Part shown: positions 9,988-43,741 of the stretch, piece by piece
Numbering within the stretch: the stretch's first letter is position 1
Layout of the letters: every line of letters starts with the position of its first letter
From: Escherichia coli 042
Lineage (GTDB): Bacteria > Pseudomonadota > Gammaproteobacteria > Enterobacterales > Enterobacteriaceae
Assembly: GCF_000027125.1 (NCBI RefSeq)
Contig: NC_017626.1
DNA: 64,000 nt
Strand: one strand, 5' to 3'
Notes under the pieces: model-generated
What the model saw: only the letters and a program-made list of their open reading frames with translations
Told to the model about the DNA's origin: nothing
Database searches by the model: none
Program-made: the position numbers and the translations under genes

Positions 9988-10040
9988 ACTATCTCACCGA
10001 ATAAATTGCAACACTCCCCTTACCCCACATCCTAAAGGCT

Positions 10041-11781: not shown

Positions 11782-13569
<1,788 letters not shown>

Positions 13570-13627
13570 AAACGCACCTTAATCTGCGAACAAAAAAAAG
13601 AATCATCACCGACACCCACGACGTTAT

Positions 13628-14021
<394 letters not shown>

Positions 14022-14888
14022 TCAGCCCTCTCGTTCCTGCAACATAATTTTCCAGTCAAACGAAAAACCTTTTATTCATGTCATACCAACAATCACCAGC
14101 CTCCTGACGATACCTCCCACCATGTTTTGCGATGGCACGCTACCGCCCTTCCGGTATTTACCCGCATCAACTGGTACCAGAATGCTGAGCAATAAATCTG
14201 CCAATTTTTAGCTGACTTATTTTTGATCATTATAGAATAATGATCTGAACTACAGCAATATGACAGATTTATCGATCGATATAACACAAATGAACAGTTC
14301 TTTATTCTGTCATATATCGCAAAAACAGCACATTGCAAAATTTATAACCATAATTAATGGAAAAGTGCAGAAAATTATTCCACTGAATGCTCAGTTGGTT
14401 AGCTAAAAAAATAGCAATTTTTGATTTCAGTCATTGAAAATTGCAATGCATGACGATTCAACAGCATTTAAGTGAGTTTCAGGATATGGGAAGGACATGA
14501 AAGGAGGAGCGCAATAAAATATACAGGAAGAAGGGGAAAATGTTTCGTAAAAACAGAAAATTAACAGCGCACATCAGGAAACGCAGTCTCCTGATTCAGT
14601 GCTACCACATGAAAATTTAGTTAACTGTTACCGTACTAAAATTTATGTCAGAAGATGTTCCATTACCGAAAGTCAATCAGCGATACAAAGACGATCATGG
14701 TGCGCTTGTCACCGTGACCAGTGTTGAGGAAACCCGGGTGGTGTTTATGCGGGACGGCTATCCGCATCCCTGCATGCGACCGATGTACAACTTTCTGGGA
14801 AAATTCAAACCCGCCCCCCGGGAAGAAACAGAATAAAACGAAATCCCTGCCGGCAATCACACTGCCTGATGGCAGCATAATCCACTTA

Positions 14889-15197
14889 TTAATTCTCATC
14901 TCCGGAGACAAGCCCTGAAAACCACTCAGGGTGTTCACTGTATGCCGTGTTCAGCGCATCCCAGGAAACGTTTATATAAAAGCTGTCCTGCAATTTCCGG
15001 GTAACCACCTCTGCCAGGCGGTTCCGGTTATCCGCCAGTCCGGCATAACCTCTCTCTGTCAGCCACTCATTCAGTTCATGTTTCAGAGACAGATTAATAA
15101 TATCATAATCGGACCTTGCCATTCCCGTTTCCTTAGCACATATTTTCAGGCACGGGGATAAAGTATAAAGAATGTCGTACTGCTGCTGCCAGAGCAA
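14889..15197 (-). CDS. Hypothetical small protein
   Basis: 102-aa ORF; likely true start at internal Met (MARSDYDIINL...). Confidence 0.3.
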   Translation of the reverse strand: MLWQQQYDILYTLSPCLKICAKETGMARSDYDIINLSLKHELNEWLTERGYAGLADNRNRLAEVVTRKLQDSFYINVSWDALNTAYSEHPEWFSGLVSGDEN

Positions 15198-15217
15198 TAT
15201 TCCCCCTGATGGTTGTA

Positions 15218-15877
15218 TCAGAGATGGTATGCCGGTACTTTGCGGGTTGTTCCTGTCAGGTTATCGTGCACCTCCACGGTCGTGGTCACCACCGGCATTC
15301 CGGCCTTTCTCAGCCTCAGAACATCAGCCGCAATACGCTGACTGCCAAACCAGAACAGGCCGTCCAGTGCAGTCACCAGTAAACCCGCCTCCAGTGCATA
15401 CTTCAGCCGTTCACGGGGCGCTTTCACTTCCCGGGCAACCTGCTGATATGGCAATGATGTGTTTTCATTCCCAACCACGCGACGAATACGGTGAGACAGA
15501 TGATACCGGAATGTATCCGGCACACCAGAAAGGCTGGCCTTCAGGCTGTACACGCAACCAAACCGTTTATCGTTAAACACCACATTTTTCTGGCTGATGC
15601 CCCATTCTTCACGCAGCGCGGCAATCAGTTGTGGTGTCCGGGTAAGCAGCAAGCGAAAAGGCAGTTCAAAACTGGTGACGTAATCCACATTCAGCAGTGC
15701 AATACGCAGCCGTTCTTCTGGCCCGGCCTCTGTCTGCCGGCACTCCTCCAGAACATCCTGCCACTGCTGGCGAAGACGGGAAGACTCATTCAGCTCAGTA
15801 AAACTGTATTTATCCGCCAGATAGTCAATTCGTGTACGCATACTGAAGAGCATTCCGTATAAAGATTCAGCTGGCAA
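15218..15877 (-). CDS. Hypothetical protein, co-directional with the YfjJ-like gene next to the microcin island
   Basis: 219-aa ORF; no family recognised by eye. Confidence 0.4.
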   Translation of the reverse strand: MPAESLYGMLFSMRTRIDYLADKYSFTELNESSRLRQQWQDVLEECRQTEAGPEERLRIALLNVDYVTSFELPFRLLLTRTPQLIAALREEWGISQKNVVFNDKRFGCVYSLKASLSGVPDTFRYHLSHRIRRVVGNENTSLPYQQVAREVKAPRERLKYALEAGLLVTALDGLFWFGSQRIAADVLRLRKAGMPVVTTTVEVHDNLTGTTRKVPAYHL

Positions 15878-16108
15878 AACTTTATCAGTCCATAAAAATC
15901 AACGGAAGCGCAGATGGTTCACACGTCCATTACCAACTGATTGTTGTCACAACCGGTAACACAAAGGACTGAACGACTGTTTTTAACAGCGGTGTTGCGT
16001 CATCCACCACCGTGAAACAACGCTGTGCAGGGAATCGTCCGCATCCCCATAACGGTCAAACATCGTGGCGTTGACAGAATGACCGACGAAAAGCCAGAAA
16101 GCGCTGAT

Positions 16109-16657
16109 TCACTGAGCTGTAATCAATGTACAGCGCTGTACCGGACGATGGGTAATGGCGGTCACAACCGGTAACCCCAGAGACAATGCGACTGTTTTTA
16201 ACGCAACATACTGACCGGATGTATCACCCCGGGCAACCCGAAAACACCTTTCCACCCGGCATTGTCCGCCAGCACTTATCACCTGCCAGCTATGTTGCAG
16301 TAAATCCACCACTTGCGAACATTGTTCATCAACTGTGACACTGGCTCGCGGGTGACAAATACTCGTCTGGCTGAGCAGCAACAGGCATCGAATTGTTGCT
16401 CCTTCATGTTGTTCCCGCAACCAGCGTAATACCACCGGAGAGGATGGACTGGCAGTGTGATTACGCTCAGTAATACGTTCATGCAGTTGTCGATAAAAGG
16501 AAGTACAGAATGCCTGAATCTGTTGCCCGTTGATGTTTCCTTCAGCCGAATGGAGCGTGAAGTGGACTGCCAGCAGACGCGGCCAGTGGTCCACCGCCTG
16601 CTGAACAAAACGCCGGATGTCTCCCGGCTCTGAAATTAAGGCTTCGGTTATTTGCAC
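16109..16657 (-). CDS. YagK/YfjJ-family (inovirus Gp2-like) protein
   Basis: 182-aa ORF with GTG start lying inside the left island repeat; core (VVLRWLREQHEGATIRCLLLLSQ) parallels the other YfjJ-like ORFs in the window. Confidence 0.45.
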   Translation of the reverse strand: MQITEALISEPGDIRRFVQQAVDHWPRLLAVHFTLHSAEGNINGQQIQAFCTSFYRQLHERITERNHTASPSSPVVLRWLREQHEGATIRCLLLLSQTSICHPRASVTVDEQCSQVVDLLQHSWQVISAGGQCRVERCFRVARGDTSGQYVALKTVALSLGLPVVTAITHRPVQRCTLITAQ

Positions 16658-16730
16658 GAAATGTTCCTTTTCAAACCCTGTTGAATTTTGTTAAGCCAGT
16701 GCAGACACAGTAAAGCGCGCATCAACACCT
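16641..16730. repeat. Left copy of ~90-bp imperfect direct repeat flanking the microcin island
   Basis: Aligns to 29420..29512 at ~80% identity with a 1-nt indel; 29-bp core ttgaattttgttaagcc(a/g)gtgcagacaca differs only at the a/g position. Confidence 0.7.
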
Positions 16731-17087
16731 GAAATGATGGTTTTATTCAGAGTATATGACTTTCTTTTACCCGCTCAAGATACGTTCCCTAGCGATATCA
16801 TCAGAAGTTTATGTGTTGTGTATCCATCCATATTAATCTGGTTCCAGTTTTCGGTATATGTCATGAGGAAACATTACAAATATATTCTGGAGCGGAGAAA
16901 GGAAATTGAAACCGTTTCAGAAAGGTTGATACGTGAGGCTGATACGAGAGAATATGAACTATGGCGTCCTGCCCGTCGTTTTTTCTCCATTCTTTTTATT
17001 GTTCTATTAGTTTATATTCATTCACTGATAACAACTATAAAATAAAAATTATGGCTGTTCTGATACCGGAGAAGAAACGTTCATTCT

Positions 17088-17807
17088 ATGGTTACCTCTT
17101 CCTGTTATATAAAAATTTTAAATAACAAGCAAGGGAATATAAATGGAAATAACAAAAAATGCAACATAAAAACAGTCATCAGCGGCTGCTTTTTAATGTT
17201 TACTTTATCATTTTCTATTACCTTTATTCCTGCATTCCTTACAAACAGGCAGGAACTTATATCCAGGGGACTTCTTGTTCCAGCATTATTTCTTGCTGAA
17301 TTTCTAATTCTTGTTCCACTGTATTTTATTTTCTTCCGAAAAAGAGAAGGATTAGGAAGAGGTTCTTTTCGACCGGATGTTTTTTACTCTTTTCTCTTTA
17401 ATAATGATTATTCAGTTATTTGTCCCTTATCTGCTGGCAGTGAGGAAAACGGAAGAATGGATGATCTCGCAAATGTCTTTTTCTGAGGCCATTTTATGTT
17501 TCTTCTGTACTTCTATGTTCCTGTATATGAAGAGATTGTATTTCGAGGGTGTTTTTTTAATTCTTTATAATTCTGGTTTAATGACAATATTTACATCTCT
17601 GCCATTGTAACATCAGTCATATTCTCTGCATTGCATCTACAATATACTGACTTTCGTACATTTTTTATGCTCTTTTTAGTATCGTTAGTTCTTATTAGCG
17701 CACAAATAAAGTCGAATGGTCTGTTAATGCCCATATTACTTCACATGGCGATGAATGCAGTCATAGCAGGAATACAATATCTAGCTTATATCAGTTATTC
17801 CCATTAA
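17088..17807 (+). pseudogene. Degenerate CPBP (CAAX protease / Abi) family intramembrane protease-like gene, disrupted by frameshifts
   Basis: Frame ending at 17807 encodes a typical CPBP C-terminus (FSALHLQ ... NGLLMPILLHMAMNAV); upstream hydrophobic segments lie in two other overlapping frames (17088..17486, 17377..17610). Confidence 0.45.
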
Positions 17808-18002
17808 CAGAGCATTTTCTGTTACAATCTCATATGATAAAAATTAAACGGACTAGCATTGTTACTATGCGGTATGCATAAAATGATAAACGTTCGGAGG
17901 AGCCTAACTTAAACCATTACATAGGCATCATTAACAATATAAGGTTTAATTTCCACTCCCCGCAGACGAAGAAGCACTTGATGTACATCTGCCGGATCCA
18001 AA

Positions 18003-18224
18003 CTAGGATGATAATCCTATACCTGAGGGAGACATGGAGGGACTAACCGTCGCAGTCGTTGCCCATGAATGTACTTTATCACCTATATAAGCCCCTGCAA
18101 TAGAACCAAATCCCGGGCTAATAAACGTACCTGCAAGTGAACCAATAGCAATTAATTCTGCCTGCCCGTCATTCCCGTCACCTCCAGATATTTGTTTTAT
18201 TTCATTTTCAGATAGTTTTCTCAT
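18003..18224 (-). CDS. mcmA: Microcin M precursor (double-glycine leader, Ser-rich C-terminus)
   Basis: 73-aa product from internal ATG: MRKLSENEIKQISGG leader then DGNDGQAELIAIGSLAGTF...SPSGIGLSS, matching microcin M as recalled. The 133-aa track ORF is an upstream extension. Confidence 0.8.
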   Translation of the reverse strand: MRKLSENEIKQISGGDGNDGQAELIAIGSLAGTFISPGFGSIAGAYIGDKVHSWATTATVSPSMSPSGIGLSS

Positions 18225-18294
18225 TTCAACACCTTCGCTATAAAATTTGTGAAGAAGTAAAAATTCACGTTTAACCACAACGATAAAAATGTAA

Positions 18295-18441
18295 CTACAA
18301 GTGATAAAAAAACATATATAGATTAAAAAAATTATATCTATAGTAATAACTAAGATATAATGACACCGGAATATAAAAGAACAGATAATTGATAACAAAA
18401 GCAATCACTGTTATTTTTATATCCTTCTTAACCTCCCCCAT
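18295..18441 (-). CDS. Candidate small hydrophobic immunity protein (McmI-like), below the ORF-track size cutoff
   Basis: Hand translation: ATG 8 nt after aaggag gives a 48-aa ORF (MGEVKKDIKITVIAFVINYLFFYIPVSLYLSYYYRYNFFNLYMFFYHL) between the mchF stop and the mcmA start. Confidence 0.4.
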   Translation of the reverse strand: MGEVKKDIKITVIAFVINYLFFYIPVSLYLSYYYRYNFFNLYMFFYHL

Positions 18442-29705: not shown

Positions 29706-29942
29706 TCATGCTGCTGCTCCTCGTGATTCCTCAATTCGCTGCTGCATCCACTGCTCCACTTCACTTTTGTACCAGCGGCTGCTGCGGCCCAGCTTGATGG
29801 GTTTCGGGAAATGGCCTTCACTGATCAGCTTGTAAAACCATTTATCTGTCATACCGGTGAAACTGGTGATGTAGTTCATGTCGATCAGGGGATCGTCGGC
29901 ACGCAGCAACACGCAGTCGTGGCCTGTCATTGAGGTCAACAT
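29706..29942 (-). CDS. alpA: AlpA-family prophage regulatory / excisionase-like protein
   Basis: 78-aa ORF; C-terminal region (GHFPKPIKLGRSSRWYKSEVEQW) matches the AlpA family pattern. Confidence 0.7.
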   Translation of the reverse strand: MLTSMTGHDCVLLRADDPLIDMNYITSFTGMTDKWFYKLISEGHFPKPIKLGRSSRWYKSEVEQWMQQRIEESRGAAA

Positions 29943-30010
29943 GGTCAGAATATCCTCTGTGAGATTTATGAAGGTTGTGCGAATGCGGGGAAAGGTGCTG
30001 AGCCGTATTC

Positions 30011-30586
30011 TCAGAACGGTCCTGCAGATCCGGGATAGCCGGGATTACCGGCGAGGCAACGGGCTTCCGGATCGCACACACCACGACGATCGCGGGCGAA
30101 ATCACTGAACGCCCAGATCAAATCTTTGAGGATGTCTTCGCAGTCCGGTGAACGACTGTCCAGCACCACATCCCGGGTTATCTGTTTCTGGTACGGTGCC
30201 GCTTCCCCCGGTGACGCGAAGCCCAGTACGTTGCTCCAGGCATCCAGAATCAGCCGGTCCAGTTCGGGGCCGTCGAAATACTCCTGTCTGACGCACAGCA
30301 CCACGTGGTATTCCGGCTTTTCCGGATGACGGGTCAGGAGCCAGCAAAGGTCGCGTCCGGGTTTCGCATTCATCAGCGCACTGACGGTTTCGATAAAATC
30401 CATACCAAACCAGGTCTGTCTGCTGTTGAAGGCGTTGTCATGTTCCCACGGCAGACGAAGCAGGATCCGCCGTATCCGTGAGCCGGACTGCTCACGCAGC
30501 GCACGCTCAAGGACGCCGATGACTTTGTTCTGATAAGATGGCCAGAAGGGTGCCAGGCTATAGTCGAAATAAGGAATAGCATTCAT
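30011..30586 (-). CDS. YagK/YfjJ-family (inovirus Gp2-like) protein
   Basis: Track ORF starts at GTG 30718; likely true start is internal ATG (MNAIPYFDY...). Paralogous to 30833..31399 and 37556..38287. Confidence 0.5.
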   Translation of the reverse strand: MNAIPYFDYSLAPFWPSYQNKVIGVLERALREQSGSRIRRILLRLPWEHDNAFNSRQTWFGMDFIETVSALMNAKPGRDLCWLLTRHPEKPEYHVVLCVRQEYFDGPELDRLILDAWSNVLGFASPGEAAPYQKQITRDVVLDSRSPDCEDILKDLIWAFSDFARDRRGVCDPEARCLAGNPGYPGSAGPF

Positions 30587-30832
30587 AAGATATGTTCCGT
30601 TATGCGCAGCCCACAATGCGTCCTGCCCGTGAATGAGCTGACGTGTTATGGCTTGCGGATGAGATTGATGGAATAAGTGAAGAACTGAAGCAGAACGGGA
30701 AGATAAGGGACAGAACACCGGATTCAGGTTCAGGATGAATGATCTCCGTTGACTTCAGTTCACATCATTAATCAATGCGGTAAGTTTTTACCGACGGAGT
30801 GTTTCCAGGAGCGGAGGCTCAGGCCTTAAGCT

Positions 30833-31399
30833 TCAGAAGTGAGGCTTACGAGGACGCCCTGCAGCAGGACGTTCAGGAACTTCATTGCAGCCGTAGGCAC
30901 ACAGCCCGTCTTTTTGTTCTTCTTTCGCCAGATAATGCAGGGCACCGCGAATATTATCGATGCTTTCAGGATCGTTGTGGCGCACAGGAATGTTGATGTT
31001 GTATGCATAATGCGGCTGATATGTACAGCGGTGCGCCGAACCACAGTTATACGTAATTGCCTGCCAGCATTCCGCTATCCGCTCCGCAAAGGGATATATT
31101 TTTTTAACCCTCTGACGATCGATCCAGAAAACGACATGCGCATGAAAACCATGATCAGCCGTCCATTCAATCACCCAGAAGAAACCAACGATATTTTCAA
31201 ATTGTTCCACCTGCTCCAGCAGCATACGCAACTGCAATTCAAGCCAGCGATGATCAGGTTGTAAGAAATCAGGCGTATCTTTCCTGTAGAAGAAATCCAT
31301 GCGTAAGGCCCGCAGGCAGGAATAGCGTGCCATCATTTGATTGATGTGATTGTCAAGTAAAGCGGTAAAAAACCAGTTTGGTGTGTAAGATTTAGGCAT
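30833..31399 (-). CDS. YagK/YfjJ-family (inovirus Gp2-like) protein
   Basis: 188-aa ORF (HAHVVFWIDRQR core) in tandem with the previous paralog. Confidence 0.55.
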   Translation of the reverse strand: MPKSYTPNWFFTALLDNHINQMMARYSCLRALRMDFFYRKDTPDFLQPDHRWLELQLRMLLEQVEQFENIVGFFWVIEWTADHGFHAHVVFWIDRQRVKKIYPFAERIAECWQAITYNCGSAHRCTYQPHYAYNINIPVRHNDPESIDNIRGALHYLAKEEQKDGLCAYGCNEVPERPAAGRPRKPHF

Positions 31400-32826
31400 G
31401 TTGATGACTCCTGAAAGTTAATGATGTTTTAAGCTCTGTGAACGAATTAATGCTTTCGCTCATAATCAGATCTAAAACGGTAATAACTTACAGATGGTAT
31501 TTATCAGGCATGCTGTAGCAGAATGGATACGACGGGTTATTAACGATACGCAGCATTATGCAGAAAGAAATGGATTATCTGATGGTATTAGCTAAAGAGA
31601 TGAGATAAACGAGGAGTAAAGAAAATACAGACTCAATAAAACATCACGAAATACTGCAAAATACGCGATAAAACACCACGACCAGAAGGTTAAGAAACAT
31701 ATTGCGACCAATCATAAACTACAAACTTGCTCTCAGTGGTTGTAAAAACCGTGTACAAGGCCAATGCAATAAACTTATATGCGCTCATTCAATCTGTTCT
31801 TAAGGACATGAACATTCACGGCTCACGATAGCAGAATAAAAAATACCACTGACATGATTTTCATCCTGCATCTTAGATAATACAACCCAGAACAAACATA
31901 ATCAGGAATCTCTCCTGTCAATTCCATTGTTTATCCAGCTCTGTTAATCGTTACAGAATCATGGATACCTTATCAAAAAGTAAACATTCGGTTAATCAGT
32001 AATGACAAAAGAATTGATGTTCATCAGAATAGTTAAAACACTTCAGATAAACAATTATCGTTAAGTAAATACAGTTCATGATGGATAAGATTAAAATCAA
32101 TTACTGTTTCAGTGAAGACTGATAACAGATGAATATCATCAGTAGAATGGTAGAGGATAACTTATCTGAGTATCGTATGAATTACAGTAGTTATGCCTAA
32201 TGAAGAAGGAAGTGGATATTATGATAATGGTGACAATGAAGATTAGACAAAGAAGAGTGTGAGTAAAGACAGAGTGAATATAATTATAGTAATAAACCTA
32301 AATTAAAATTATCCATGTTTGATGTAAAATAATAATATACTGACAACCATGAAGATAAGAAAAAGAGAGTGCAGGTATCAGGAAGATCTCAGGATATGAA
32401 GATTCCCACAACACAGATTTAAAATCAGTCGAATATAATAAATTTAAAAACCTTAATTAAAATGTAATCTCATCCATGGTTAACATGCTCCTGAAAAGAA
32501 AATTTACAAATACCGTATGCTACCAACTAATTACAACAATGATATATGTACATTCAATAAGAATACAGATAAAATATTAATACCAACTTCCAGTATCAAG
32601 ATCGTATCGCGAACTTCAGATGCGCTATGAGGCAGTTCAATTTTTAACTTTCGTTTTCCTCTTCCTCCCTGGCTTCATATGCATAAGCGACTTGAAAGAC
32701 CCGATGATAGTTACAATTTCAGGTTGTGGCATGACGATCAATTTGTAACTGAAACAATGAACGGTAACGCTGCCATATAAACATCAAAATGCGAGCATTA
32801 CAGCGACATTGAACCGATTAGATGTA

Positions 32827-33573
32827 TCACTCATAATCAGAACAAGATGATGTATCCTGAGATATAAGAAAATCATCAAGAGAACCTCCGGCTTTTATTG
32901 CTTCTGCAATAACATTAGGCCGACGACCTTGTCCACTCCAGTACATTGTTTGACCGTTATACTCATACCTGTATTTATTAGACTCTCCTGAATCGTTTTT
33001 CCTGCCCGTCTGTAATTTTTTGCCAAATTCACGTTCGTCGATCATGGTAATGATATAGCGACGCATTTCACCCATTCTGAGCTCAATGGCGTCCATCCCA
33101 ATGAGCTCACCGGTCTTTACCGGACGGTAGTGCTTTGGCCGGCGGGGTTTGGCGGTTCGCTTTTTGACAAGCAGAGCCTTACCCCGCGAGCTCAGACGTA
33201 CTGGTATCATCCGCATTTTATCGTGTGCGGTGGCGATCATTCTGCCGATGGTGGAAACACTCGGGCAGGTCAGATGGCGCTGTGCGCACCAGGGCTTCAG
33301 GCGAACAAAAATCTGCTCTTTACCGAGGTTTGGCAGCTCTGTCCTGAGGCGTCGAATCTCTTTCAGCACATCGGGATGCCAGTGCTTTTTTCGTCGCACC
33401 AGAGGTGCCTTACTGTGCGGGATTAGCCCCTCAGGTCCTCCCTTGTTCAGTAACTGACGCCACCAGTAAAGCGTGCGGCAGGACACGCCAAAGGCTTCAG
33501 AAGCCGCAGAAATACCGTGTTTATCCCAGAAGTGCAGAGCCTTCATTCTCATTGTTGCTATATCAGCTGTCAC
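32827..33573 (-). pseudogene. Truncated IS481-family transposase-like gene (HTH plus start of DDE domain, then unrelated tail)
   Basis: N-terminus (LHFWDKHGISAASEAFGVSCRTLYWW) and GELIGMDAIELRMGEMRRYIITMID resemble IS481-family transposase up to the start of the catalytic core. Confidence 0.4.
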
Positions 33574-34102
33574 GAACGGTGCAATAGTGATCAGCCATCA
33601 CTGAAAGCCTCAACGCATAATCGGCCGTTTAGGATAGCCAACCATCAGATGCTGCATTTGCATAGTGCAATCTCCCCTTACTTATCCGGAGGCAATTGCA
33701 ATATCTCTGTGAACTTACACATAGGTGTAATCAATAAGGGCGTACGGAGATTGCCCGTTATTGCTGCAGGATCGGCAGACTGGTTTCCGTCCTTGCGCAT
33801 ATAACTGTACAACTACAGAGAAAAGCATCAATGCACGCTTTATGTTGCGTCAGGGCAGCGAACGACTCCTTTTGTTGACGACACATATCACCTTCTGTAC
33901 TGCTAATTATGGCATTCAGCGTCTCCCCGAGTTTTAAGCTCCTGCTCTTACGAACCAGCGACAAGCAATAAATAACTATGGCAATGAATCTAATAACAGC
34001 ATAAATATGAGACTCATCGATACTCATCGTGATTAGTATAATCGGGGCATAATTGGGGCAGAATTATATTCACTGTCTGATTTATTATTGGGTTAAATAT
34101 AA

Positions 34103-34555
34103 TTAAAGTGTTCTCAAAAGTCTGGCTGGATTACCGGCATACACGCCTTTTACCAGTACGGGCTTTGTAACCACACTACCAGCACCAATCACTGCTCCAC
34201 TGCAAATTTCTGTTGTTAAAATGGTCGCTCCGCTACCCACTGTTACAGTGTTACCTAATACGATGCGTATCCAGCTTTCTGCAGAGGCATCGGGACCACC
34301 ACACTTAAAAAGATCATTAGCAAAAGTTACGCCATGACCGATGAAACAGCCATCACCTAAAATGACGTTCTCACAGATGAAACTGTGGGACTGAATTCGG
34401 CTCCGGTTGCCAATGATACATCCCTTCTGTATTTCCACAAAGGGACCGATAAAAACATCATCCCCCAGTTCACATTCATAGAGGTTTACTGGCATGACGA
34501 CTTTCACATTTTCACCAAATTTCACATCACGAATGCGGCTGTCAATAACGTTCAT
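34103..34555 (-). CDS. Left-handed beta-helix (hexapeptide-repeat) acyl/acetyltransferase
   Basis: 150-aa ORF with repeated hexapeptide pattern (IGNRSRIQSHSFICENVILGDGCFIGHGVTFAND). Confidence 0.6.
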   Translation of the reverse strand: MNVIDSRIRDVKFGENVKVVMPVNLYECELGDDVFIGPFVEIQKGCIIGNRSRIQSHSFICENVILGDGCFIGHGVTFANDLFKCGGPDASAESWIRIVLGNTVTVGSGATILTTEICSGAVIGAGSVVTKPVLVKGVYAGNPARLLRTL

Positions 34556-34962
34556 ATCCGTTGTATCCTCCCTCAGGATGATTCTTATCAGAACATTTCA
34601 CCTGTCAGAATATTCCCGGTAATGTGATACAAGAGCCAGTCTCACCGGGTACCACGTGTTATTGCCCGTATCCTTTTACCCGTTACGAGTGTACAACCGG
34701 TTTTATATTTTGCAATCCAGGCCTGTTACACCAGAGCATCCTCTCACTGCCCCCTCACTGGTCAATCCGGGATTCAAATTCATCCTCCAGCACTAAACCC
34801 CATACCAGTCCTGAACCTTCCCTCGCCAGCAGCCAGACTCCTACTGTTCACCACAATCCTCTTCCGTGAATGGCCGTAAGTGCGCAGCACCAAAATAATG
34901 AGGTAGCCTGAGTTTAACGGACACTCCTTCCTGAAATAGAATGGCATCAGAAGGAGCTAATA

Positions 34963-35225
34963 ATGAGCAGAAAAACCCAACGTTACTCTAAAGAGTTCAA
35001 AGCCGAAGCTGTCAGAACGGTTCTTGAAAATCAACTTTCGATCAGTGAAGGCGCTTCCCGATTATCTCTTCCTGAAGGCACTTTAGGACAATGGGTTACC
35101 GCCGCCAGAAAAGGGCTCGGTACTCCTGGTTCCCGCATGGTGGCTGAACTGGAATCTGAAATTCTGCAACTGCGTAAGGCGTTAAATGAAGCTCGCCTTG
35201 AGCGAGATATATTAAAAAAAGCAAC
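34963..35225 (+). pseudogene. IS600-like orfA, interrupted near its 3' end by IS30
   Basis: HTH-type OrfA; reading frame runs into IS30 at 35226; original C-terminus (AYFAQESLKNSR) follows at 36447. Confidence 0.75.
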
Positions 35226-36446
35226 TGTAGATTCAATCTGTCAATGCAACACCCCTTTCAATTATCTCTTTCGGTGTTTTGAACTTCAGTGTCTTTCTCG
35301 GTCTGTTGTTTAGCTGAGCAGCAACCAGATCTAGTTCATGTTGAGTATATTGGGCAAGACATGTCTTTTTAGGAAAGTACTGCCGAATTAGCCCATTTGT
35401 ATTCTCATTTGTTCCCCGCTGCCAAGGACTCTGAGGATCGCAGAAGTAAACTTTAACGCCGGTGCTGACAGTAAATTCTAGATGTCTGGCCAGTTCCATT
35501 CCTCTGTCCCATGTCAGTGATTTTCTGAGTTCTGACGGTAAACTCAGGAATTTGTCGGTAAGAGCCTGATTTACTGAGACAGAATCTTTGCCCCTGAGTC
35601 TAAGGATGATCGTATAACGTGATTTTCGGTCTACAAGTGTGGCTATATGAGAGTTTTTTGTACCTGAGACTAAATCGCCCTCCCAATGCCCCAGAGAGCG
35701 TCTGTTATCGATATTTCGGGAACGTTCGTGAATTGGTGTTCCGTTCACTATGTTAATCGTACCTCTTTCGCCTTTGCGGGTATGACGCCTGCCATGGCGA
35801 AGGCTATGCGACCGTCGCAGATGCTGTATATTCAGGTGGTGTTGCGCTTCACGGCTACGAAAGTACAGCGTTTTATAAATTGTCTCAGGTGATATTCGCA
35901 GCGTTTTTTGACGTGGTTTTGTTCGCCTTAACCATCCTGATATTTGCTCTGGAGACCATTTCATCTCCAGCTTTTCCAGAACAAGCTTTCGCAATGGTAA
36001 ATTTTGATCCAGTAAGCACGGTTTTGGCCTTTTCGCCATTCTGTTGGCTCGGTTATTAGCATCAACAGCTTTGTAATAGCGTCTGCCCCGATTACGCTGA
36101 ACTTCACGTGAGATCGTCGAAGGACTGCGATTCAGCGCAGTAGCTATCGCACGAATGCTCATTTTGGCTGACAAACCAGCTCGTATCTCCTCGCGCTCAG
36201 ACAGTGTCAGGTGAGCTACAGCCCGCTTACGCTCATGGGGTTTTATGCCGCCAGTATCCCTTAACATAGTGAAGATCGTTCCGGGTTTTGAACCCAGGAT
36301 ATTCGCTATTTCACTGAAGCCTGTTCCGTTCTTCCATAGTTCAAAAACAGAGGCTTTTTCCTCTGCTGTAAATGTTCGTCTCATTCAAAAAACCTCCACA
36401 ACCCCATGTTTTCACATAACTGTTGCGTTGACCAATTGAATCTACA
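35226..36446 (-). mobile_element. IS30 (1221 bp) with 26-bp terminal inverted repeats and 2-bp AC target duplication
   Basis: Ends tgtagattcaat(c/t)... at 35226 (plus) and 36446 (minus); AC dinucleotide on both flanks; length matches canonical IS30. Confidence 0.9.
35233..36384 (-). CDS. insI: IS30 transposase
   Basis: 383-aa ORF (MRRTFTAEEKASVFELWKNGTGFSEIANILG...), the canonical IS30 transposase length and N-terminus. Confidence 0.9.
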   Translation of the reverse strand: MRRTFTAEEKASVFELWKNGTGFSEIANILGSKPGTIFTMLRDTGGIKPHERKRAVAHLTLSEREEIRAGLSAKMSIRAIATALNRSPSTISREVQRNRGRRYYKAVDANNRANRMAKRPKPCLLDQNLPLRKLVLEKLEMKWSPEQISGWLRRTKPRQKTLRISPETIYKTLYFRSREAQHHLNIQHLRRSHSLRHGRRHTRKGERGTINIVNGTPIHERSRNIDNRRSLGHWEGDLVSGTKNSHIATLVDRKSRYTIILRLRGKDSVSVNQALTDKFLSLPSELRKSLTWDRGMELARHLEFTVSTGVKVYFCDPQSPWQRGTNENTNGLIRQYFPKKTCLAQYTQHELDLVAAQLNNRPRKTLKFKTPKEIIERGVALTD

Positions 36447-36523
36447 ACAGCGTATTTTGCACAGGAGTCGCTGAAAAATTCGCGTTAATCGAACAATGGC
36501 GACAACAATTTCCCATTGAAGCG

Positions 36524-37342
36524 ATGTGTCAGGTATTTGGTGTATCCAGGAGCGGTTATTACAACTGGGTACAGCATGAACCCTCAGACAGAAAACAAAG
36601 TGATGAGCGGCTAAAACTGGAGATTAAGGTGGCACATATCCGCACTCGCGAAACATATGGAACCCGGCGGCTCCAGACGGAGCTGGCAGAGAATGGCATC
36701 ATCGTTGGTCGTGACCGACTGGCACGTCTTCGTAAGGAGCTAAGGCTACGCTGTAAGCAGAAACGCAAGTTCAGAGCGACTACGAACTCGAACCACAATC
36801 TGCCAGTTGCGCCAAATCTGCTGAACCAGACGTTCGCTCCTACAGCACCAAATCAGGTCTGGGTGGCGGACCTGACGTATGTTGCCACACAGGAGGGATG
36901 GTTGTACCTCGCTGGCATCAAAGATGTTTATACGTGCGAAATTGTCGGCTACGCCATGGGAGAGCGCATGACAAAAGAGCTGACAGGTAAAGCCCTGTTT
37001 ATGGCGCTCAGGAGCCAGCGCCCACCTGCCGGGCTAATCCACCACTCTGATCGAGGTTCACAGTACTGCGCATACGATTACCGGGTCATACAGGAGCAGT
37101 TTGGTCTGAAAACATCAATGTCGCGTAAAGGTAACTGTTACGACAACGCTCCGATGGAAAGCTTCTGGGGAACGCTGAAAAATGAGAGCCTGAGCCACTA
37201 TCGTTTTAATAACCGGGATGAAGCCATCTCAGTAATACGGGAATACATTGAGATTTTCTACAATCGTCAGCGTCGTCACTCTCGTCTGGGGAATATCTCC
37301 CCGGCAGCCTTCAGGGAAAAATATCATCAGATGGCTGCTTAA
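36524..37342 (+). CDS. IS3-family (IS600-like) OrfB transposase catalytic subunit
   Basis: 272-aa ORF with DDE integrase core (HHSDRGSQY, GNCYDNAPMESFWGTLK). Confidence 0.85.
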   Translation: MCQVFGVSRSGYYNWVQHEPSDRKQSDERLKLEIKVAHIRTRETYGTRRLQTELAENGIIVGRDRLARLRKELRLRCKQKRKFRATTNSNHNLPVAPNLLNQTFAPTAPNQVWVADLTYVATQEGWLYLAGIKDVYTCEIVGYAMGERMTKELTGKALFMALRSQRPPAGLIHHSDRGSQYCAYDYRVIQEQFGLKTSMSRKGNCYDNAPMESFWGTLKNESLSHYRFNNRDEAISVIREYIEIFYNRQRRHSRLGNISPAAFREKYHQMAA

Positions 37343-37555
37343 AAAAAGAACAAATGGTAGTGTCCGCTATTGCCAGTACACCTCATAAATCGGTACTTCC
37401 GATGACAGACAGTGAAAGCGTAAGGAGAAATATGAACATGAGAATGGAAGCAGATACATGACTTCAGGACGACTTTTTCAGAAAACGAGCTAAGGGCGTT
37501 GGCTGACGCCCTTACTGTGGCATAAGCTCAGGCACCGGATGCCGTTTTACAGGGT

Positions 37556-38287
37556 TCACCTGCCATCCAGTAGACGCCCCGGCCCACGACTGCAACCATA
37601 ATTACGTTGCCCGGAACCGTTATGCAGCTTCGTTTCATATTTCACGAGATAACTGGCTCTGTTCCGGGCTTTCTGCAGCGCTTCCACATCACCACGCTTG
37701 ATCCAGAGAACAGCGGCTTCACCCGGCTTTTTGTCTGAAGCCTTCCTGGTATCAGAACATCCACCCGACAAAGGCGTGTCATCGGAAGAAGGGCGAGCAT
37801 CAGACGATGCTGGTTTACGGGAAGGCGTCCACCTGGAAAAATGGACCTGGCCATCGCCTTGCCAGGGCTCAAGATGCAGGGCGCTGCACCATGCCTCTAG
37901 GATCATCGTCGCCAGCGAAGATGGTTCGCTGAAATCCCCGAGCGAGCACCAGGTATCTTTGTTGAGCAGTAATATCACGTGATAATGTTTCCTGCCATAC
38001 ATCTTGCCGAACTCCCGGCACCAGAAATAACGCAGGCTGGTTGCATGCACACGCTGATTGGCACATCTTTTTTTCCGCTGGTAAGCCTGAATTTTGGCTT
38101 TCAGGGATGCAAAAAAACGAGAAATCACCGCTGAATCCGGATCGGGATCCATGATGGTGACAGGCATATACTCAGGAAACCGTAAATCCACCCGGATTAA
38201 CGAGACGGCACGGTGTTGCACCAGGGCACTGTTGAGAATACTTTCAAAACGGGATAACCAGTAATCATTGTGTATTGGTTGATTCAT
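37556..38287 (-). CDS. YagK/YfjJ-family (inovirus Gp2-like) protein
   Basis: 243-aa ORF (RVDLRFPEYMP ... HYHVILLLNKD); third paralog in the window. Confidence 0.6.
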   Translation of the reverse strand: MNQPIHNDYWLSRFESILNSALVQHRAVSLIRVDLRFPEYMPVTIMDPDPDSAVISRFFASLKAKIQAYQRKKRCANQRVHATSLRYFWCREFGKMYGRKHYHVILLLNKDTWCSLGDFSEPSSLATMILEAWCSALHLEPWQGDGQVHFSRWTPSRKPASSDARPSSDDTPLSGGCSDTRKASDKKPGEAAVLWIKRGDVEALQKARNRASYLVKYETKLHNGSGQRNYGCSRGPGRLLDGR

Positions 38288-38956: not shown

Positions 38957-39487
38957 ATGAAGCTAACAGAAGAAAGTCTGAATCTAGTCATTGACATCCT
39001 GAATGATTTGATCTGTGAAGGAAAAATGCTGAACGATGTGGAGCGCAGATCTCTGCTCAATGCAGTTATGGCAATTACAGCGGTAAAAGAACGTTCTGTC
39101 GTATCTGTATCATCCCGAAAAGAGCAAAGTAAGAAGGAGAAGAAGGAAAGAGAGATCGATCCTCGTTTCCCAAATGCTGGTGTGGCATGGAATGAGGCAG
39201 ACGAGAATTTATTGCGAGATGTTCTGGAGGATGTACCGGACGATGAAATTGGTAAACACCTTTTCTGGCTGGCAGAGAAACTAGGGCGAACCCCGTACAG
39301 TGTAGCCTGTAAAGTCAGACAAATTAAGAAATTACCTGCAGAATGGAAGGATCAATTTCGTAAAATCTCTGACAGGATCCGTAGTTCTGGAATGTCAGTC
39401 AGTGAATATCTACAACGCCAGGGACTGTTAAGCCCAGAGTCAGGGGAAGAAAACAATCCTGTCAGTCATAACAACAATGTAGCTTAA
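38957..39487 (+). CDS. Hypothetical protein
   Basis: 176-aa ORF, charged/Lys-Glu-rich middle; no family recognised by eye. Confidence 0.4.
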   Translation: MKLTEESLNLVIDILNDLICEGKMLNDVERRSLLNAVMAITAVKERSVVSVSSRKEQSKKEKKEREIDPRFPNAGVAWNEADENLLRDVLEDVPDDEIGKHLFWLAEKLGRTPYSVACKVRQIKKLPAEWKDQFRKISDRIRSSGMSVSEYLQRQGLLSPESGEENNPVSHNNNVA

Positions 39488-40649
39488 TCCTGAAGAAGAT
39501 GAACAGTTTATACTCTTTAAACTGTTCCCTTAATTTTAGAAAAACAGTTTGTGTAAGTGCATGCTCCAACATTCTGAAGGCATTATTTCTTACAATACAT
39601 CATAATCATTGGCAGATCCTCATCTGAATCAAAACACCACAACCAATCATCACACTTTTTCTGAAAAGAGCCTTATGATGAAGATAATCACCTTACGCTG
39701 AGAAAAAACACTAGGGCCAGTTAATCACCTTATCAATCTCGCCGTTACAAAATCATCCATAAGCCATTTAACAGTGTTATCGCAAACTCACAGTAAATCG
39801 CATCAGGTTACCTCAATCGGATTTGAGTTAATTCACTGGGCTTTACGTAAAGATACTTTTCTCAGGTTAACGACTAAAACACGAAAACTCAGAAAAGGTT
39901 AAACACAGGTTCAGTAAAATCGAATATCATCTTGATTGCTTAAACAGGACAGAGGGTTTTGTAGTGAGGTTAACTGATTTTAGCGATCGTAAAAAAAGGA
40001 CTAACAAATTTACTAAACTGGATGTGTATCAGACAAAGCAATGTGTGTAGCAATGCTTAATGAAAATACTTGTATGATTGTCTATGAAAGTACGTGTATA
40101 ACACTTACTGAAATGCTTAGTAAAAATACGTGTATATAGTATCATACCGACATTCTCAACTCTTCCAAACATCCATGCAGACTGAATGTTGGTTTCAGTT
40201 TTTCACGGCCAGCATGGATCTTTACTGGTCAAAAAACAGACATGTTTACTCTGGAATTATTTTTCTGATTCCGTCTTCAGAACAACAAAAACTCGTGATA
40301 ACTCTACAACAAACTATCGTAATTGGCTTCTGTAACCCCGTCACTTTTCCTAAGAAATGTGCCCCCATATAATGCGGGAGAGATAAGTCATCGTATACAG
40401 GAAACACTGCCAATCATAACATAACGTCATTCAATAATTTTTATCCATAATCAGATGAGCATATCATGATTATTGAATATTATGATATATAACTCATATG
40501 AATGTGTTATTATCTGTAAGCGTTAAGCATCACATTGCATAACCATACTAAGCTGGATAATCATCAACGTTTTTATATGTAACTCATTGAAATTAATTAT
40601 ATGTTTTTTGTGGATAATTAATATGTAATGTGAAATTAATATTTTCACA

Positions 40650-41873
40650 TCATGAACGCCATTTAAAATTACCATCCTGAATATCATATGACAATATATT
40701 TTCACTAAAGCATGAATTGTATATATCTATTAACTCTGGAAAATTATCAGGATTCACCTTCAAATTCACTTGAATGTTACGTTTAATTTCACCCAGCAGT
40801 TCTTCATGTGTGGATTTTATTATCCCTTTCTCATAATCGATAAATACACACATGTTCTTTATGAATTCAAAACCTTTTCCTGTATACAGTTTAATGAATG
40901 CCACCAGAGCAAACATTTCAAGATATAGCCATAATGCCACGTTAGTTTTTTGCAAAGTATAAAAAATTGAATTCGCCACTCTTTTACTTATTGCTCTTTT
41001 ATACTGTGATCGGGCAAGATTCAGTAGCGGAAGCTCTCGTTCAATAAATGAATGTGAAAAGACTGGATAAATTGATGTAGGAAACCTTTCAGGTCTTATG
41101 ATATTTTCTATTTCCACCATAAATCTATCCATAGAAAGAAAGTCACTTTCTTTTTTTATTCTGGTATAGAGACCGCCTTTATTCCTTTCTGAGGTTTGTT
41201 TTCGTGCTATCCCCCCCAACACTTTCTCTAATTGTTTATTTATCTTCGTATAATTAAATACAACCATTCTTCTTATCATCCTCGGAAGGATAATAATATC
41301 AGTGCTTGAATCACTTGAGCGGCAATTATTATTTATCCATGCAACTTCAAGTTGCAGTATCGGAACATTAACTTTTCTGGGGTGAATATCTCTCTGATAT
41401 CGTTTTTTGTATGCGTTTTCATTAAGATATTCTCTGCTGTAGAGAAACTTATAGCAATATAATCTGATAATATCTTTTATGTAAAATTTAAATAGTTCAC
41501 CTGTAACAGATATATGTTTTCTGCTCAGTAACTCCTGTGTATTAAGCCATTCCCGTGACCGAAGCACACCCTTGTGAAAACTTTTTCTTACTTGCTTTGA
41601 AGCACGCCATTGATGTAATATTTTTGCGTCCTCAATAATTCTCTTTCCCGTTTTATTTTTTGCAGCATCTCTTACTCTATAAAATATCTCCCAGTCCAGA
41701 CTTTTGTCATATCTACTAATTATACGACAAATATTCCTGACCCGACGATTCTCTTTATTTCGCTTCCATAGCTTATAATGATCATCGCATAACCTTAAGG
41801 CATTTGCCTCATCAAATTCTGAAACAGGATTACTGCATTTTTTATTCCGACAGATACCTTTGTTTTTAGCCAT
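40650..41873 (-). CDS. Orphan AT-rich hypothetical protein with N-terminal Cys cluster (CRNKKC...C..H)
   Basis: 407-aa basic ORF, much lower GC than its flanks, isolated between two ~1-kb non-coding stretches. Confidence 0.5.
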   Translation of the reverse strand: MAKNKGICRNKKCSNPVSEFDEANALRLCDDHYKLWKRNKENRRVRNICRIISRYDKSLDWEIFYRVRDAAKNKTGKRIIEDAKILHQWRASKQVRKSFHKGVLRSREWLNTQELLSRKHISVTGELFKFYIKDIIRLYCYKFLYSREYLNENAYKKRYQRDIHPRKVNVPILQLEVAWINNNCRSSDSSTDIIILPRMIRRMVVFNYTKINKQLEKVLGGIARKQTSERNKGGLYTRIKKESDFLSMDRFMVEIENIIRPERFPTSIYPVFSHSFIERELPLLNLARSQYKRAISKRVANSIFYTLQKTNVALWLYLEMFALVAFIKLYTGKGFEFIKNMCVFIDYEKGIIKSTHEELLGEIKRNIQVNLKVNPDNFPELIDIYNSCFSENILSYDIQDGNFKWRS

Positions 41874-41973
41874 ACTCTTCTTCCCGTCAATGGAAAAATT
41901 TTCACACCCATATTACCTGAATGATAAACCGGATTAGTGTGATCCGGTTCAGTGAAATCAACAGGATACCGGT

Positions 41974-42858
41974 ATGCCATTCAGCAATTCTTCCCTCTCC
42001 GCGCAAGTGAAATCATATCTGACGTTTCTTCCTGAAGAAATTCGCCAGAAAATCCTTGAACATCTCCACGGTGTTATTCATTACGAGCCCGTGATTGGCA
42101 TTATGGGTAAATCCGGCACCGGCAAAAGCAGTCTGTGTAATGCCATTTTTCAGTCCCGTATCTGCGCCACGCATCCCCTGAACGGCTGCACCCGCCAGGC
42201 TCATCGCCTCACCCTGCAGATTGGTGAACGCAGAATGACGCTGGTCGATCTGCCCGGCATTGGTGAGACACCGCAGCATGATCAGGAATACCGGGAGCTT
42301 TACCGTCAGTTACTGCCGGAACTGGATCTGATTATCTGGATCCTGCGGGCTGATGAACGTGCGTATGCTGCCGATATTGCCATGCATCAGTTTTTACTGA
42401 ATGAAGGTGCAGATCCCTCGCGTTTTCTGTTTGTTCTCAGCCATGCCGATCGCGTGTTTCCTGCTGAAGAATGGAATGCCACAGAAAAATGCCCATCCCG
42501 TCACCAGGAACTCTCACTGGCAACTGTTACAGCCTGGGTGGCAACCCTGTTCCCGTCATCATTTCCGGTACTCCCCGTTGCTGTGCCTGTCGGCTGGAAT
42601 CTTCCGGCGTTTGTGTCGCTGATGATCCACGCCCTGCCACCGCAGGCAACCAGTGCGGTTTATTCACATATCCGGGGGGAAAACCGCTCTGAACAGGCCC
42701 AGAAACACGCACAACAGACTTTTGGTGACGCCATCGGGAAAAGTTTTGACGACGCCGTTGCCCGGTTCACTTTTCCGGTCTGGATGTTACAGCTTCTGCG
42801 TAAAGCCCGGGACCGCATTATCCGCCTGCTGGAAACACTGTGGGATCGTCTGTTCTGA
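41974..42858 (+). CDS. YfjP/YkfA/YeeP-family GTPase (cryptic-prophage GTP-binding protein)
   Basis: 294-aa ORF with P-loop (GIMGKSGTGKSS) and G3-like (DLPGIGE) motifs. Confidence 0.75.
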   Translation: MPFSNSSLSAQVKSYLTFLPEEIRQKILEHLHGVIHYEPVIGIMGKSGTGKSSLCNAIFQSRICATHPLNGCTRQAHRLTLQIGERRMTLVDLPGIGETPQHDQEYRELYRQLLPELDLIIWILRADERAYAADIAMHQFLLNEGADPSRFLFVLSHADRVFPAEEWNATEKCPSRHQELSLATVTAWVATLFPSSFPVLPVAVPVGWNLPAFVSLMIHALPPQATSAVYSHIRGENRSEQAQKHAQQTFGDAIGKSFDDAVARFTFPVWMLQLLRKARDRIIRLLETLWDRLF

Positions 42859-43060: not shown

Positions 43061-43741
43061 ATGTCTGATGATCGTTCCCGGCATGATCGTCTGGCGGTTC
43101 GCTTATCACTCATTATCAGCCGACTGATGGCCGGAGAATCTCTGTCACTAAAGACACTGTCAGATGAATTTGGCGTTACAGAACGTACTTTACAGCGCGA
43201 TTTTCATCAGCGTCTGGTTCACCTGGATTTAGAGTACAGAAATGGCAGGTACAGCCTCAGACGACAGAGCAGCCCGTGTGCGATCCCTGAAATGCTTTCT
43301 TTTATACAGAATACCGGGATCGCACGGATACTTCCGCTCCGGAACGGACGACTGATAACCTTTCTTACCGACAACCAGGAGCCCTCTCCCTGCCTTATCT
43401 GGCTGCCGGCGCCGGATATCACTGCAACGTTCCCCGAGTGTTTCTCGCAACTCATCCTGGCAATAAGACAGTGTATCCACATCTCTCTGATGACTGAGCG
43501 ATGGTATCCGTCACTGGAGCCCTGCCGGCTCATTTATTACAGCGGTAGCTGGTATCTGATCGCGTTACAGAAGGGAAAACTGCAGGTCTTTCCTCTGGCA
43601 GATATCAAATCAGTCAGCCTGACATCAGAACGGTTTGAACGGAGAGGCCACATCCACAGTCTGGTCGCTGAAGAGCGTTTTATCTCCGCCCTGCCACATT
43701 TCTCTTTCATCCATAAACTTATCAACACCTTTAACCTGTGA
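43061..43741 (+). CDS. HTH transcriptional regulator, YfjR-like (DeoR-type HTH)
   Basis: 226-aa ORF with N-terminal HTH (LKTLSDEFGVTERTLQRDF). Confidence 0.5.
   Translation: MSDDRSRHDRLAVRLSLIISRLMAGESLSLKTLSDEFGVTERTLQRDFHQRLVHLDLEYRNGRYSLRRQSSPCAIPEMLSFIQNTGIARILPLRNGRLITFLTDNQEPSPCLIWLPAPDITATFPECFSQLILAIRQCIHISLMTERWYPSLEPCRLIYYSGSWYLIALQKGKLQVFPLADIKSVSLTSERFERRGHIHSLVAEERFISALPHFSFIHKLINTFNL

Follow-up and report, generated by a model that had tools for sequence, protein, structure and literature searches.

What does the protein encoded by an AT-rich open reading frame (ORF) of 407 codons do in a chromosomal island of Escherichia coli 042? The question was raised by gene X, as this ORF is called below, which lies within the 64,000-nucleotide stretch of contig NC_017626.1 analysed here (hereafter, the window) and is divergent from a gene for a YfjP-family protein (hereafter, the GTPase). 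A first-pass annotation of this DNA described X as an orphan gene with an N-terminal cysteine cluster and suggested, from its position beside the GTPase gene, that it might be an abortive-infection or defence gene. The findings reported here favour another reading, to which we give a probability of roughly 45%, namely that X is a domesticated, non-catalytic protein of HNH endonuclease ancestry that would bind nucleic acid in the service of the island's own regulation or replication-excision.

40650 to 41873, minus strand: gene X, 407 amino acids, an ATG-to-stop ORF that is an intact coding sequence in RefSeq (WP_001107219.1, 'hypothetical protein').

The extent of this ORF, its low GC content relative to its neighbours and the basic character of its product were all as first described. 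The GC content was 0.333 in X, 0.533 in the GTPase gene beside it and 0.444 over the whole window, and the predicted isoelectric point (pI) of the protein was 9.8, with all segments basic. Given the base composition of X itself (A 0.38, T 0.29), the probability of 407 stop-free codons was approximately 2e-16. The window was 100% identical to E. coli chromosomes, the island adjoining cadC, and the 1224-nt frame of X was kept in alleles from four other strains. Pairwise ratios of non-synonymous to synonymous substitution (dN/dS) among E. coli alleles ranged from 0.22 to 0.34 for X and from 0.13 to 0.23 for the neighbouring GTPase gene, the two ranges lying close together. A survey of E. coli, which the first-pass annotation had recommended, revealed X in 975 of 5426 complete genomes at identities of 91%-100%, in full length in 967 of them; carriers included UTI89, S88, APEC O1 and the type strain ATCC 11775, in which the X protein was identical to that of the window and the gene differed by only two synonymous changes. 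Given the improbability of so long an open frame by chance, the dN/dS values and the number of genomes with an intact copy, X is a genuine protein-coding gene maintained by purifying selection.

The ancestry of X was approached through its relatives; the protein itself gave no match in Pfam (even at an E-value of 10), NCBIfam, PADLOC (E up to 1) or PDB sequences, in agreement with the first-pass statement that it belonged to no recognised family. X and its nearer relatives (13 sequences aligned) were designated clade A. The most distant matches, P0033 and P0038, led to a sister group of 11 sequences, clade B, from Klebsiella pneumoniae, Citrobacter freundii, Enterobacter, Salmonella enterica and K. 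aerogenes. Comparison of the two clades by hhalign gave a probability of 99.9% and an E-value of 1.9e-32 over 369 columns, i.e., over the full length of the proteins. An invariant segment of clade B, LEV(c)H-x-YPNsKGGAN-x3-N-l-i-i-a-P-x-x-I-N-R, was then the source of the HNH assignment. A 61-residue profile of this motif, searched against 177,635 distinct PDB sequences, returned six matches, all of which were HNH nucleases (E 0.18-1.1): 4h9d, McrA (6ghc), three Cas8f-HNH fusions and pyocin AP41, with the His and Asn of the motif aligned on catalytic residues. Five clade-B proteins also weakly matched one region of the Cas9d model, and one of them matched IscB as well (E 0.004-0.13), in regions that we take to be the HNH domains of those proteins; one member matched Pfam HNH_4 (E 0.01) and one matched PHROG 1271, 'HNH endonuclease' (E 0.07). 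Some relatives in AFDB carry the automatic name 'HNH endonuclease', which fits the clade-B motif. The clade-B matches are thus singly weak (E 0.004-1), yet the named nuclease families that were matched are HNH families.

The corresponding segment of X aligned column for column with the clade-B motif, reading L-E176-V-A-W179 ... S-x-D192-I-I-I-L-P197-R-M-I-R201-R-M-V, and was predicted to form a beta-beta-alpha unit. The position of the general-base His, which is His in 11 of 11 clade-B proteins, is occupied by W179 in X and by W, F, Y or K across clade A. Similarly, the structural Asn is replaced by D192 and the metal-ligand Asn by R201, both replacements being invariant in clade A and both positions being Asn in clade B. 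Members of clade A, although only 27-47% identical to each other, were all full length and shared 35 invariant residues, D192 and R201 among them. The alignments indicate that X shares descent with the HNH-motif proteins of clade B and that it has lost all three HNH catalytic residues. Because His is replaced by Trp, the structural Asn by Asp and the metal-ligand Asn by Arg, X should be incapable of HNH catalysis and is predicted to be non-catalytic.

Three parts of the protein were distinguished.

41778 to 41852, minus strand: N-terminal CCCH zinc-ribbon or treble-clef-like motif (C8-x4-C13-x15-C29-x2-H32, then Y33..W36), assigned from conservation and AlphaFold2 (AF2) prediction.
41217 to 41357, minus strand: degenerate HNH (His-Me finger) unit, residues 173-219, with an LEVAW(179) strand, a D192-IIILP(197) strand and an RMIR(201)RMV helix.
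40653 to 41186, minus strand: C-terminal, mainly helical domain, residues 230-407, with family-invariant Y236, P282, R293, E319, Y385 and N386.

The N-terminus of X, MAKNKGICRNKKCSNPVSEFDEANALRLCDDHY, contains the Cys/His cluster that had been noticed at first; the cluster is real and conserved in the family, but its spacing is C8-x4-C13-x15-C29-x2-H32 and not CxxxC as given. These four residues were invariant in clade A and at least 90% conserved over both clades. An AF2 model built from 8 sequences was poor in the middle of the protein, with a predicted local distance difference test score (pLDDT) of 54, and Foldseek found no match to it in the PDB. With 17 sequences, pLDDT rose to 76.9 and the predicted template modelling score (pTM) was 0.67. 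The latter model contained a zinc-knuckle-plus-helix N-terminus (pLDDT 85-86 for residues 11-40), a low-confidence helical linker at residues ~50-100 and a small alpha/beta region, in which strands 175-179 and 193-197 and helix 198-219 (local pLDDT ~74-92) form the predicted beta-beta-alpha core of a His-Me finger. The C-terminal helical domain was well predicted, with a beta-hairpin at its end. In the relative P0020 (locus L011, 8587-9984) the CCCH ribbon occurred as two tandem copies, and in clade B (e.g., residues 47-67 of P0038) an extra CxxC-x12-C-x3-(H/C) finger replaced the helical linker of clade A; the zinc modules of the family, as read from these sequences, are modular, being duplicated or supplemented in relatives. 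Together with the pI of 9.8 and the basic charge of every segment, this modularity suggests that X binds nucleic acid.

The claim that X is an orphan did not hold. An exhaustive HMMER scan of 1.84 billion cluster representatives yielded 25 proteins at E <= 0.001, many of them fragments, word-indexed searches yielded 16 and 35 proteins, and a profile search of one genome per species among 100,044 species yielded 2 loci. Full-length relatives of 25-37% identity were found in a Citrobacter genome, Klebsiella michiganensis, an unclassified Enterobacteriaceae isolate and metagenomic assemblies. Foldseek against AFDB50 found only uncharacterised Enterobacterales relatives, and added proteins from Salmonella, Enterobacter, Serratia, Providencia and Lelliottia. 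Low GC content was a property of the whole family (0.28-0.37 for homologues of X compared with 0.45-0.54 for adjacent GTPase genes). The family is small and restricted to Enterobacterales. A locus labelled Chryseobacterium sp. 18061 (L017, CACSKA010000007.1) contained an enterobacterial-type island nearly identical in layout and coordinates to that of Enterobacteriaceae bacterium RIT691 (L016), and its label is probably the result of assembly mislabelling or contamination.

Other identities for the family were considered and set aside. The K. michiganensis homologue has the following entry.

10001 to 11257 of locus L003: P0016 (AFDB A0AAX3CP38), homologue of X, named 'Reverse transcriptase' in UniRef.

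This UniRef/UniProt name looks like an annotation artefact; neither reverse transcriptase motifs nor a Pfam RVT match was found in P0016, and no YxDD-type motif was present among the conserved columns of the family. None of the 17 family members scanned against Pfam gave a match at E <= 0.001, and two unrelated families appeared at E ~0.1, with one member each. The only match of X in PHROG was at chance level (E 0.08). The K-12 protein YfjI was rejected as a homologue, being a DUF3987 protein at a different position. Nothing on the X protein was found in the literature library searched.

The position of X proved to be conserved. The relevant neighbours in the window are as follows.

41974 to 42858, plus strand: YfjP-family (Era/EngA-like) GTPase gene, from the annotation and NCBIfam GTPase matches; divergent neighbour of X.
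43061 to 43741, plus strand: gene for a WYL-domain/helix-turn-helix (HTH) regulator (YfjR-like), from the annotation and PADLOC WYL models (2e-18); second gene of the divergent unit.
37556 to 38287, minus strand: inovirus Gp2-family (YagK/YfjJ-type Rep) gene, from the annotation; next conserved gene downstream of X in E. coli.
29718 to 29897, minus strand: AlpA-family gene of the island, annotated as an HTH regulator and matched in tblastn by AlpA proteins of loci L002-L006 at 64-73% identity.

The GTPase gene does lie next to X, as first reported, and its start at 41974 is 100 bp from the X start codon, a spacing that was the same in the other E. coli loci inspected. In L002 (Citrobacter), L003 (K. 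michiganensis) and the metagenomic contigs L005 and L006, the homologue of X was likewise divergent from the GTPase gene at a distance of 95-105 bp, the WYL gene followed the GTPase gene, and AlpA lay downstream of the X homologue, followed by a Gp2-type Rep gene where the contig extended that far. A Gp2-type gene directly after AlpA, downstream of X, was noted in L002, L003, L005 and L016. The order in E. coli and L011 was X, 1.2-1.6 kb of unannotated DNA, Gp2, a hypothetical gene and AlpA; in the window, IS30/IS600 and a second Gp2-type gene also separate the AlpA gene from X. Among clade-B loci, the order in K. pneumoniae was int ... X, followed by GTPase, WYL, DUF932, RadC, CbeA and CbtA, and that in C. 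freundii was DUF3987 primase, X and then the GTPase gene onward; in Salmonella, int, two small genes, DUF3987 primase and X were found, with no GTPase module by X.

All recovered contexts of X belong to one island family, that of the CP4-57/P4-like islands, whose backbone set comprises int, AlpA, Gp2/DUF3987, YfjP GTPase, WYL, DUF932, antirestriction, RadC, CbeA/CbtA and DUF4942. Within these islands X lies at a fixed point, where the int/AlpA/Rep-or-primase module meets the GTPase-WYL-DUF932-antirestriction-RadC-CbtA module, and this slot did not differ between E. coli, Citrobacter, Klebsiella, Salmonella and Enterobacteriaceae RIT691. Distinct contexts numbered about 15 (from E. coli, Citrobacter, Klebsiella, Salmonella, an unclassified Enterobacteriaceae isolate and metagenomic assemblies), and X was the immediate neighbour of the GTPase gene in 12 of them. 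In L016 and L017, the divergent neighbour of X was the WYL gene and no GTPase gene was next to X. The link between X and the GTPase is therefore strong but not obligatory. Pairwise identities across loci were 27-47% for X and 50-70% for the GTPase and fell in the same rank order, which indicates that X has been inherited with the island backbone while evolving about twice as fast.

The short region between X and the GTPase gene contained two elements that may bear on the regulation of both genes.

41874 to 41973, no strand assigned: 100-bp divergent intergenic region with an inverted repeat and a conserved 10-mer.

The first of these, a perfect 8+8 inverted repeat at 41927-41949 (AACCGGAT-N7-ATCCGGTT), was unique in the window, where 0 would be expected by chance, and its arms varied between loci while still being palindromic in several. 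A repeated operator was rejected as an explanation of this element on account of its single occurrence in the window. The second, a 10-mer at 41908-41917 that reads GGTAATATGG in the sense of X and CCATATTACC in the sense of the GTPase gene, was conserved as [GA]GTAATAT[AG]G in every clade-A locus. On the X strand of L002 and L005 the 10-mer was preceded, at a distance of 17 nt, by a perfect TTGACA within a locus-specific palindrome, and the combination suggests a candidate sigma-70 promoter of X that an operator overlaps. In clade-B loci in which X is co-directional with the GTPase gene, the 10-mer was also found, as its reverse complement CTATATTAC, ~55 nt upstream of that gene. Assignment of the 10-mer as an X-specific promoter was revised in view of these loci; because the motif precedes the GTPase gene where X is co-directional, it appears to be primarily a part of the promoter region of that gene. 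The two putative promoters would overlap where X and the GTPase gene are divergent, and the inverted repeat and 10-mer together suggest either overlapping divergent promoters with an operator or a hairpin in the 5' untranslated region of the GTPase mRNA. A generic promoter scan gave sites no more frequent than in shuffled sequences.

The reading of X as a domesticated nucleic-acid-binding protein is based on the conjunction of these findings, i.e., a selected gene confined to one island family and to a fixed junction, which encodes a basic protein with a zinc ribbon, an apparently dead His-Me finger and a novel, conserved helical domain. On this reading, X would begin with a CCCH zinc ribbon, carry at its centre a beta-beta-alpha unit of HNH nuclease descent and end in a helical domain without known relatives; it would no longer cut DNA by HNH chemistry but would retain nucleic-acid binding through the zinc ribbon and the nuclease relic, and it would act on the island's own DNA. 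Two candidate targets may be named. One is the overlapping divergent promoter region common to X and the GTPase operon, which X would control. The other is the adjacent AlpA/Gp2-Rep (or DUF3987 primase) excision-replication module, for which X would be an accessory factor in site recognition.

Several points weigh against this reading. X itself lacked an HNH profile match even at an E-value of 10, and the HNH call depends on clade B and on matches that are singly weak. The AF2 model is of moderate quality (pLDDT 77, pTM 0.67, 17 sequences). The size of X, 407 residues, is more than would be expected of a simple operator-binding regulator, and regulators of the WYL and AlpA kinds are already present in the island. 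The 10-mer tracks the GTPase gene rather than X and so is not evidence for an X-specific operator. Lastly, X is dispensable for the GTPase module because many GTPase loci of E. coli, including that of K-12 CP4-57, are without it (1729 genomes matched a 1.6-kb query compared with 975 for X alone).

Of the competing explanations, that of the first-pass annotation fared best, although we consider it unlikely. In the form considered here, X would be a component of anti-phage defence or abortive infection, acting alone or with the GTPase and WYL proteins as a nuclease-derived sensor or effector of nucleic acid. Its premise, that defence genes can occupy this slot, was borne out, since the equivalent slot of K-12 CP4-57, where yfjP is present without X, holds abpAB, yfjM and rnlAB, abpAB and rnlAB lying between yfjJ and yfjP. 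Similarly, the clade-B homologue in the S. enterica loci L022 and L023 is directly followed (10698-18430) by HamA and a DEAD helicase, an AbiJ-like gene and a dynamin-like GTPase gene, and the position immediately following X can thus act as a hotspot for cargo. Also consistent with defence are the listing of WYL regulators as defence-associated in PADLOC, a match (E 6e-7) of the C-terminal third of the GTPase (residues 185-289; the N-terminal part resembles Era/EngA) to the model for LeoBC, which belongs to the dynamin-like Eleos system, the AT-richness of X and its evolution at about twice the rate of its neighbours, and the continued adjacency of X and the GTPase gene despite a change in their relative orientation. 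In contrast with these circumstances, no PADLOC defence model matched X (E up to 1) or any of nine relatives from both clades, PADLOC matches among its neighbours were confined to the WYL regulator and the partial LeoBC-like match of the GTPase, the family was never seen outside one island backbone, and tblastn with X found nothing in 50,697 phage records and 72,556 plasmid records. X thus did not show the distribution of mobile cargo, which is expected in diverse defence islands and mobile elements independently of any one backbone, and it diverged together with the backbone, unlike such cargo. Moreover, its catalytic residues are lost, and X and the GTPase gene each occur without the other. 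A defence role for X is, on balance, not supported.

Somewhat less probable again is the explanation that X descends from a selfish HNH homing-endonuclease gene of the free-standing kind, which entered the island at its module junction and of which X would be a relic without function for the island. Free-standing HNH homing genes are often situated at module boundaries and often decay, and X has the expected HNH ancestry with lost catalytic residues, appears as an AT-rich insertion between conserved modules and is patchily present among otherwise similar GTPase loci. A functionless relic, however, is difficult to reconcile with a dN/dS of ~0.25 and an intact frame in 967 of 975 E. coli carriers, or with the full length and the 35 invariant residues, including the replacements D192 and R201, that clade A has kept at 27-47% identity. 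Long retention after the apparent loss of catalysis argues for a selected function of X.

We give little credence to a more elaborate scheme in which X, the GTPase and the WYL protein form a three-gene switch of CP4-type islands. X, as a dead derivative of an HNH protein, would here sense DNA, for example that of an incoming phage or of the excised island, and the overlapping divergent promoters, with their shared near-palindromic, -10-like 10-mer and inverted repeat, would allow only X or the GTPase operon to be expressed at any one time, with control of island induction or a new kind of defence as the outcome. An equally improbable proposal, that X is the replication or transfer initiator of the island and acts as a nickase or recombination enzyme through another active site, draws on polar residues outside the HNH signature that are invariant or nearly so across both clades (R147, E176, Y236, R293, E319 and Y385) and on the location of X, which has Rep/primase genes nearby as well as a long non-coding stretch in which an origin could lie, but it finds no support in motif or fold, the defining motifs of HUH relaxases, tyrosine recombinases (HxxR), PD-(D/E)xK nucleases and NTPases (Walker) being absent from the conserved columns of the alignments, and these islands have a Gp2-type Rep or a DUF3987 primase of their own.

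The non-coding stretch in question lies downstream of X.

39488 to 40649, no strand assigned: ORF-poor, AT-rich spacer downstream of X, 1162 bp, GC ~0.33-0.37, no ORF longer than 80 amino acids.

The first-pass annotation had placed about 1 kb of ORF-free DNA on each side of X; this was correct for the downstream side but not for the upstream side, where the GTPase gene is 100 bp away. No gene was annotated under the spacer match in 29 of 30 sampled RefSeq genomes. The spacer was ~87% identical to that of ATCC 11775, and comparison with the divergent allele L013 gave 30-85% identity per 60-nt block as opposed to ~90% inside X, so that conservation is lower in the spacer than in the gene. The spacer of other E. 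coli strains extends up to the Gp2-family gene, and because it abuts this Gp2-type Rep gene in most E. coli strains, it could hold the origin of the inovirus Gp2-type Rep. Iteron-like direct repeats were noted at 40052-40136 (three copies of ATACA(C/A)GTA with flanking TTTT..TAAGCATT), and these were only partly conserved in other E. coli strains. An inverted repeat with 12-nt arms was noted at 40167-40223, within a 120-nt segment (40130-40246) that was ~80% identical to L013; the z-score of its fold was not significant. A non-coding RNA in the spacer or in the intergenic region was rejected, as no Rfam match was found and hairpins were not significant compared with shuffled sequences (z -1.1 and -1.8). 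An AlpA relic in the spacer was likewise rejected, as tblastn found none and the AlpA gene of the island is at 29718-29897.

Further to the left, an ORF of 176 amino acids convergent with X (38957-39487, plus strand), annotated as hypothetical in JE86-ST05 and without a match in NCBIfam or PADLOC, sits in a ~0.9-kb segment that ATCC 11775 and other E. coli strains lack. The region from 29718 to 38287 contains two Gp2-family genes (30833-31399 and 37556-38287), the AlpA gene, IS30, an IS600 fragment, an H-NS gene fragment and an acyltransferase gene, and looks like a composite or tandem pair of island left-hand modules. Microcin genes (mchS3) lie further left again.

About 18% of complete E. 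coli genomes, those of well-known ExPEC strains among them, carry X, a gene annotated merely as 'hypothetical protein' and belonging to a family without an entry in Pfam or NCBIfam. What is new is the placement of this family as a zinc-ribbon-bearing and apparently inactivated branch of HNH proteins, fixed at a junction in CP4-57-type islands, which gives X a testable identity. The results also point to a compact regulatory region common to X and to the operon of the YfjP-type GTPase, a family that is equally uncharacterised, and they caution that position and composition alone are insufficient to count X as a defence gene. The advance is a modest one, which opens no long-standing question and contains nothing so far that would greatly surprise specialists.

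Comparison with known systems places X nearest to the HNH or His-Me finger endonucleases (McrA 6ghc, Geobacter 4h9d, Cas8f-HNH, the pyocin AP41 DNase and the HNH domains of Cas9d/IscB), with which it shares a predicted beta-beta-alpha unit at 175-219 and an accessory zinc-binding module; it is also homologous over its full length to clade B, whose motif aligns with the catalytic H...N...N of these enzymes. X differs from these enzymes in having W179, D192 and R201 at the signature positions, in its predicted lack of catalysis, in having no profile match of its own, and in the central location of the unit, between the N-terminal CCCH ribbon and a ~180-residue helical domain without known relatives. 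The uncharacterised clade-B proteins (e.g., P0055 of K. pneumoniae, P0056 of C. freundii and P0060 of S. enterica) resemble X in length, three-part architecture, island family and junction slot, their genes preceding that of the GTPase or following that of the DUF3987 primase. They differ in that the H/N/N motif is kept, in a second CxxC...C..(C/H) finger where X has a helical linker, and in being co-directional with the GTPase gene where X is divergent.

Phage free-standing HNH homing genes resemble X in HNH ancestry, AT-richness, location at a module boundary, rapid evolution and loss of catalytic residues. In contrast with these genes, X was absent from the phage records searched and occurs in chromosomal islands only, and it is under purifying selection long after the apparent loss of catalysis. 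Finally, the yfjJ-yfjP slot of K-12 CP4-57 corresponds to that of X in its position relative to a Gp2-type gene (yfjJ) and the YfjP GTPase gene and in its island family; the genes that fill it in K-12, abpAB, yfjM and rnlAB, are unrelated to X and are known defence or toxin-antitoxin cargo, whereas X is conserved in this slot across genera and has diverged together with the island backbone.

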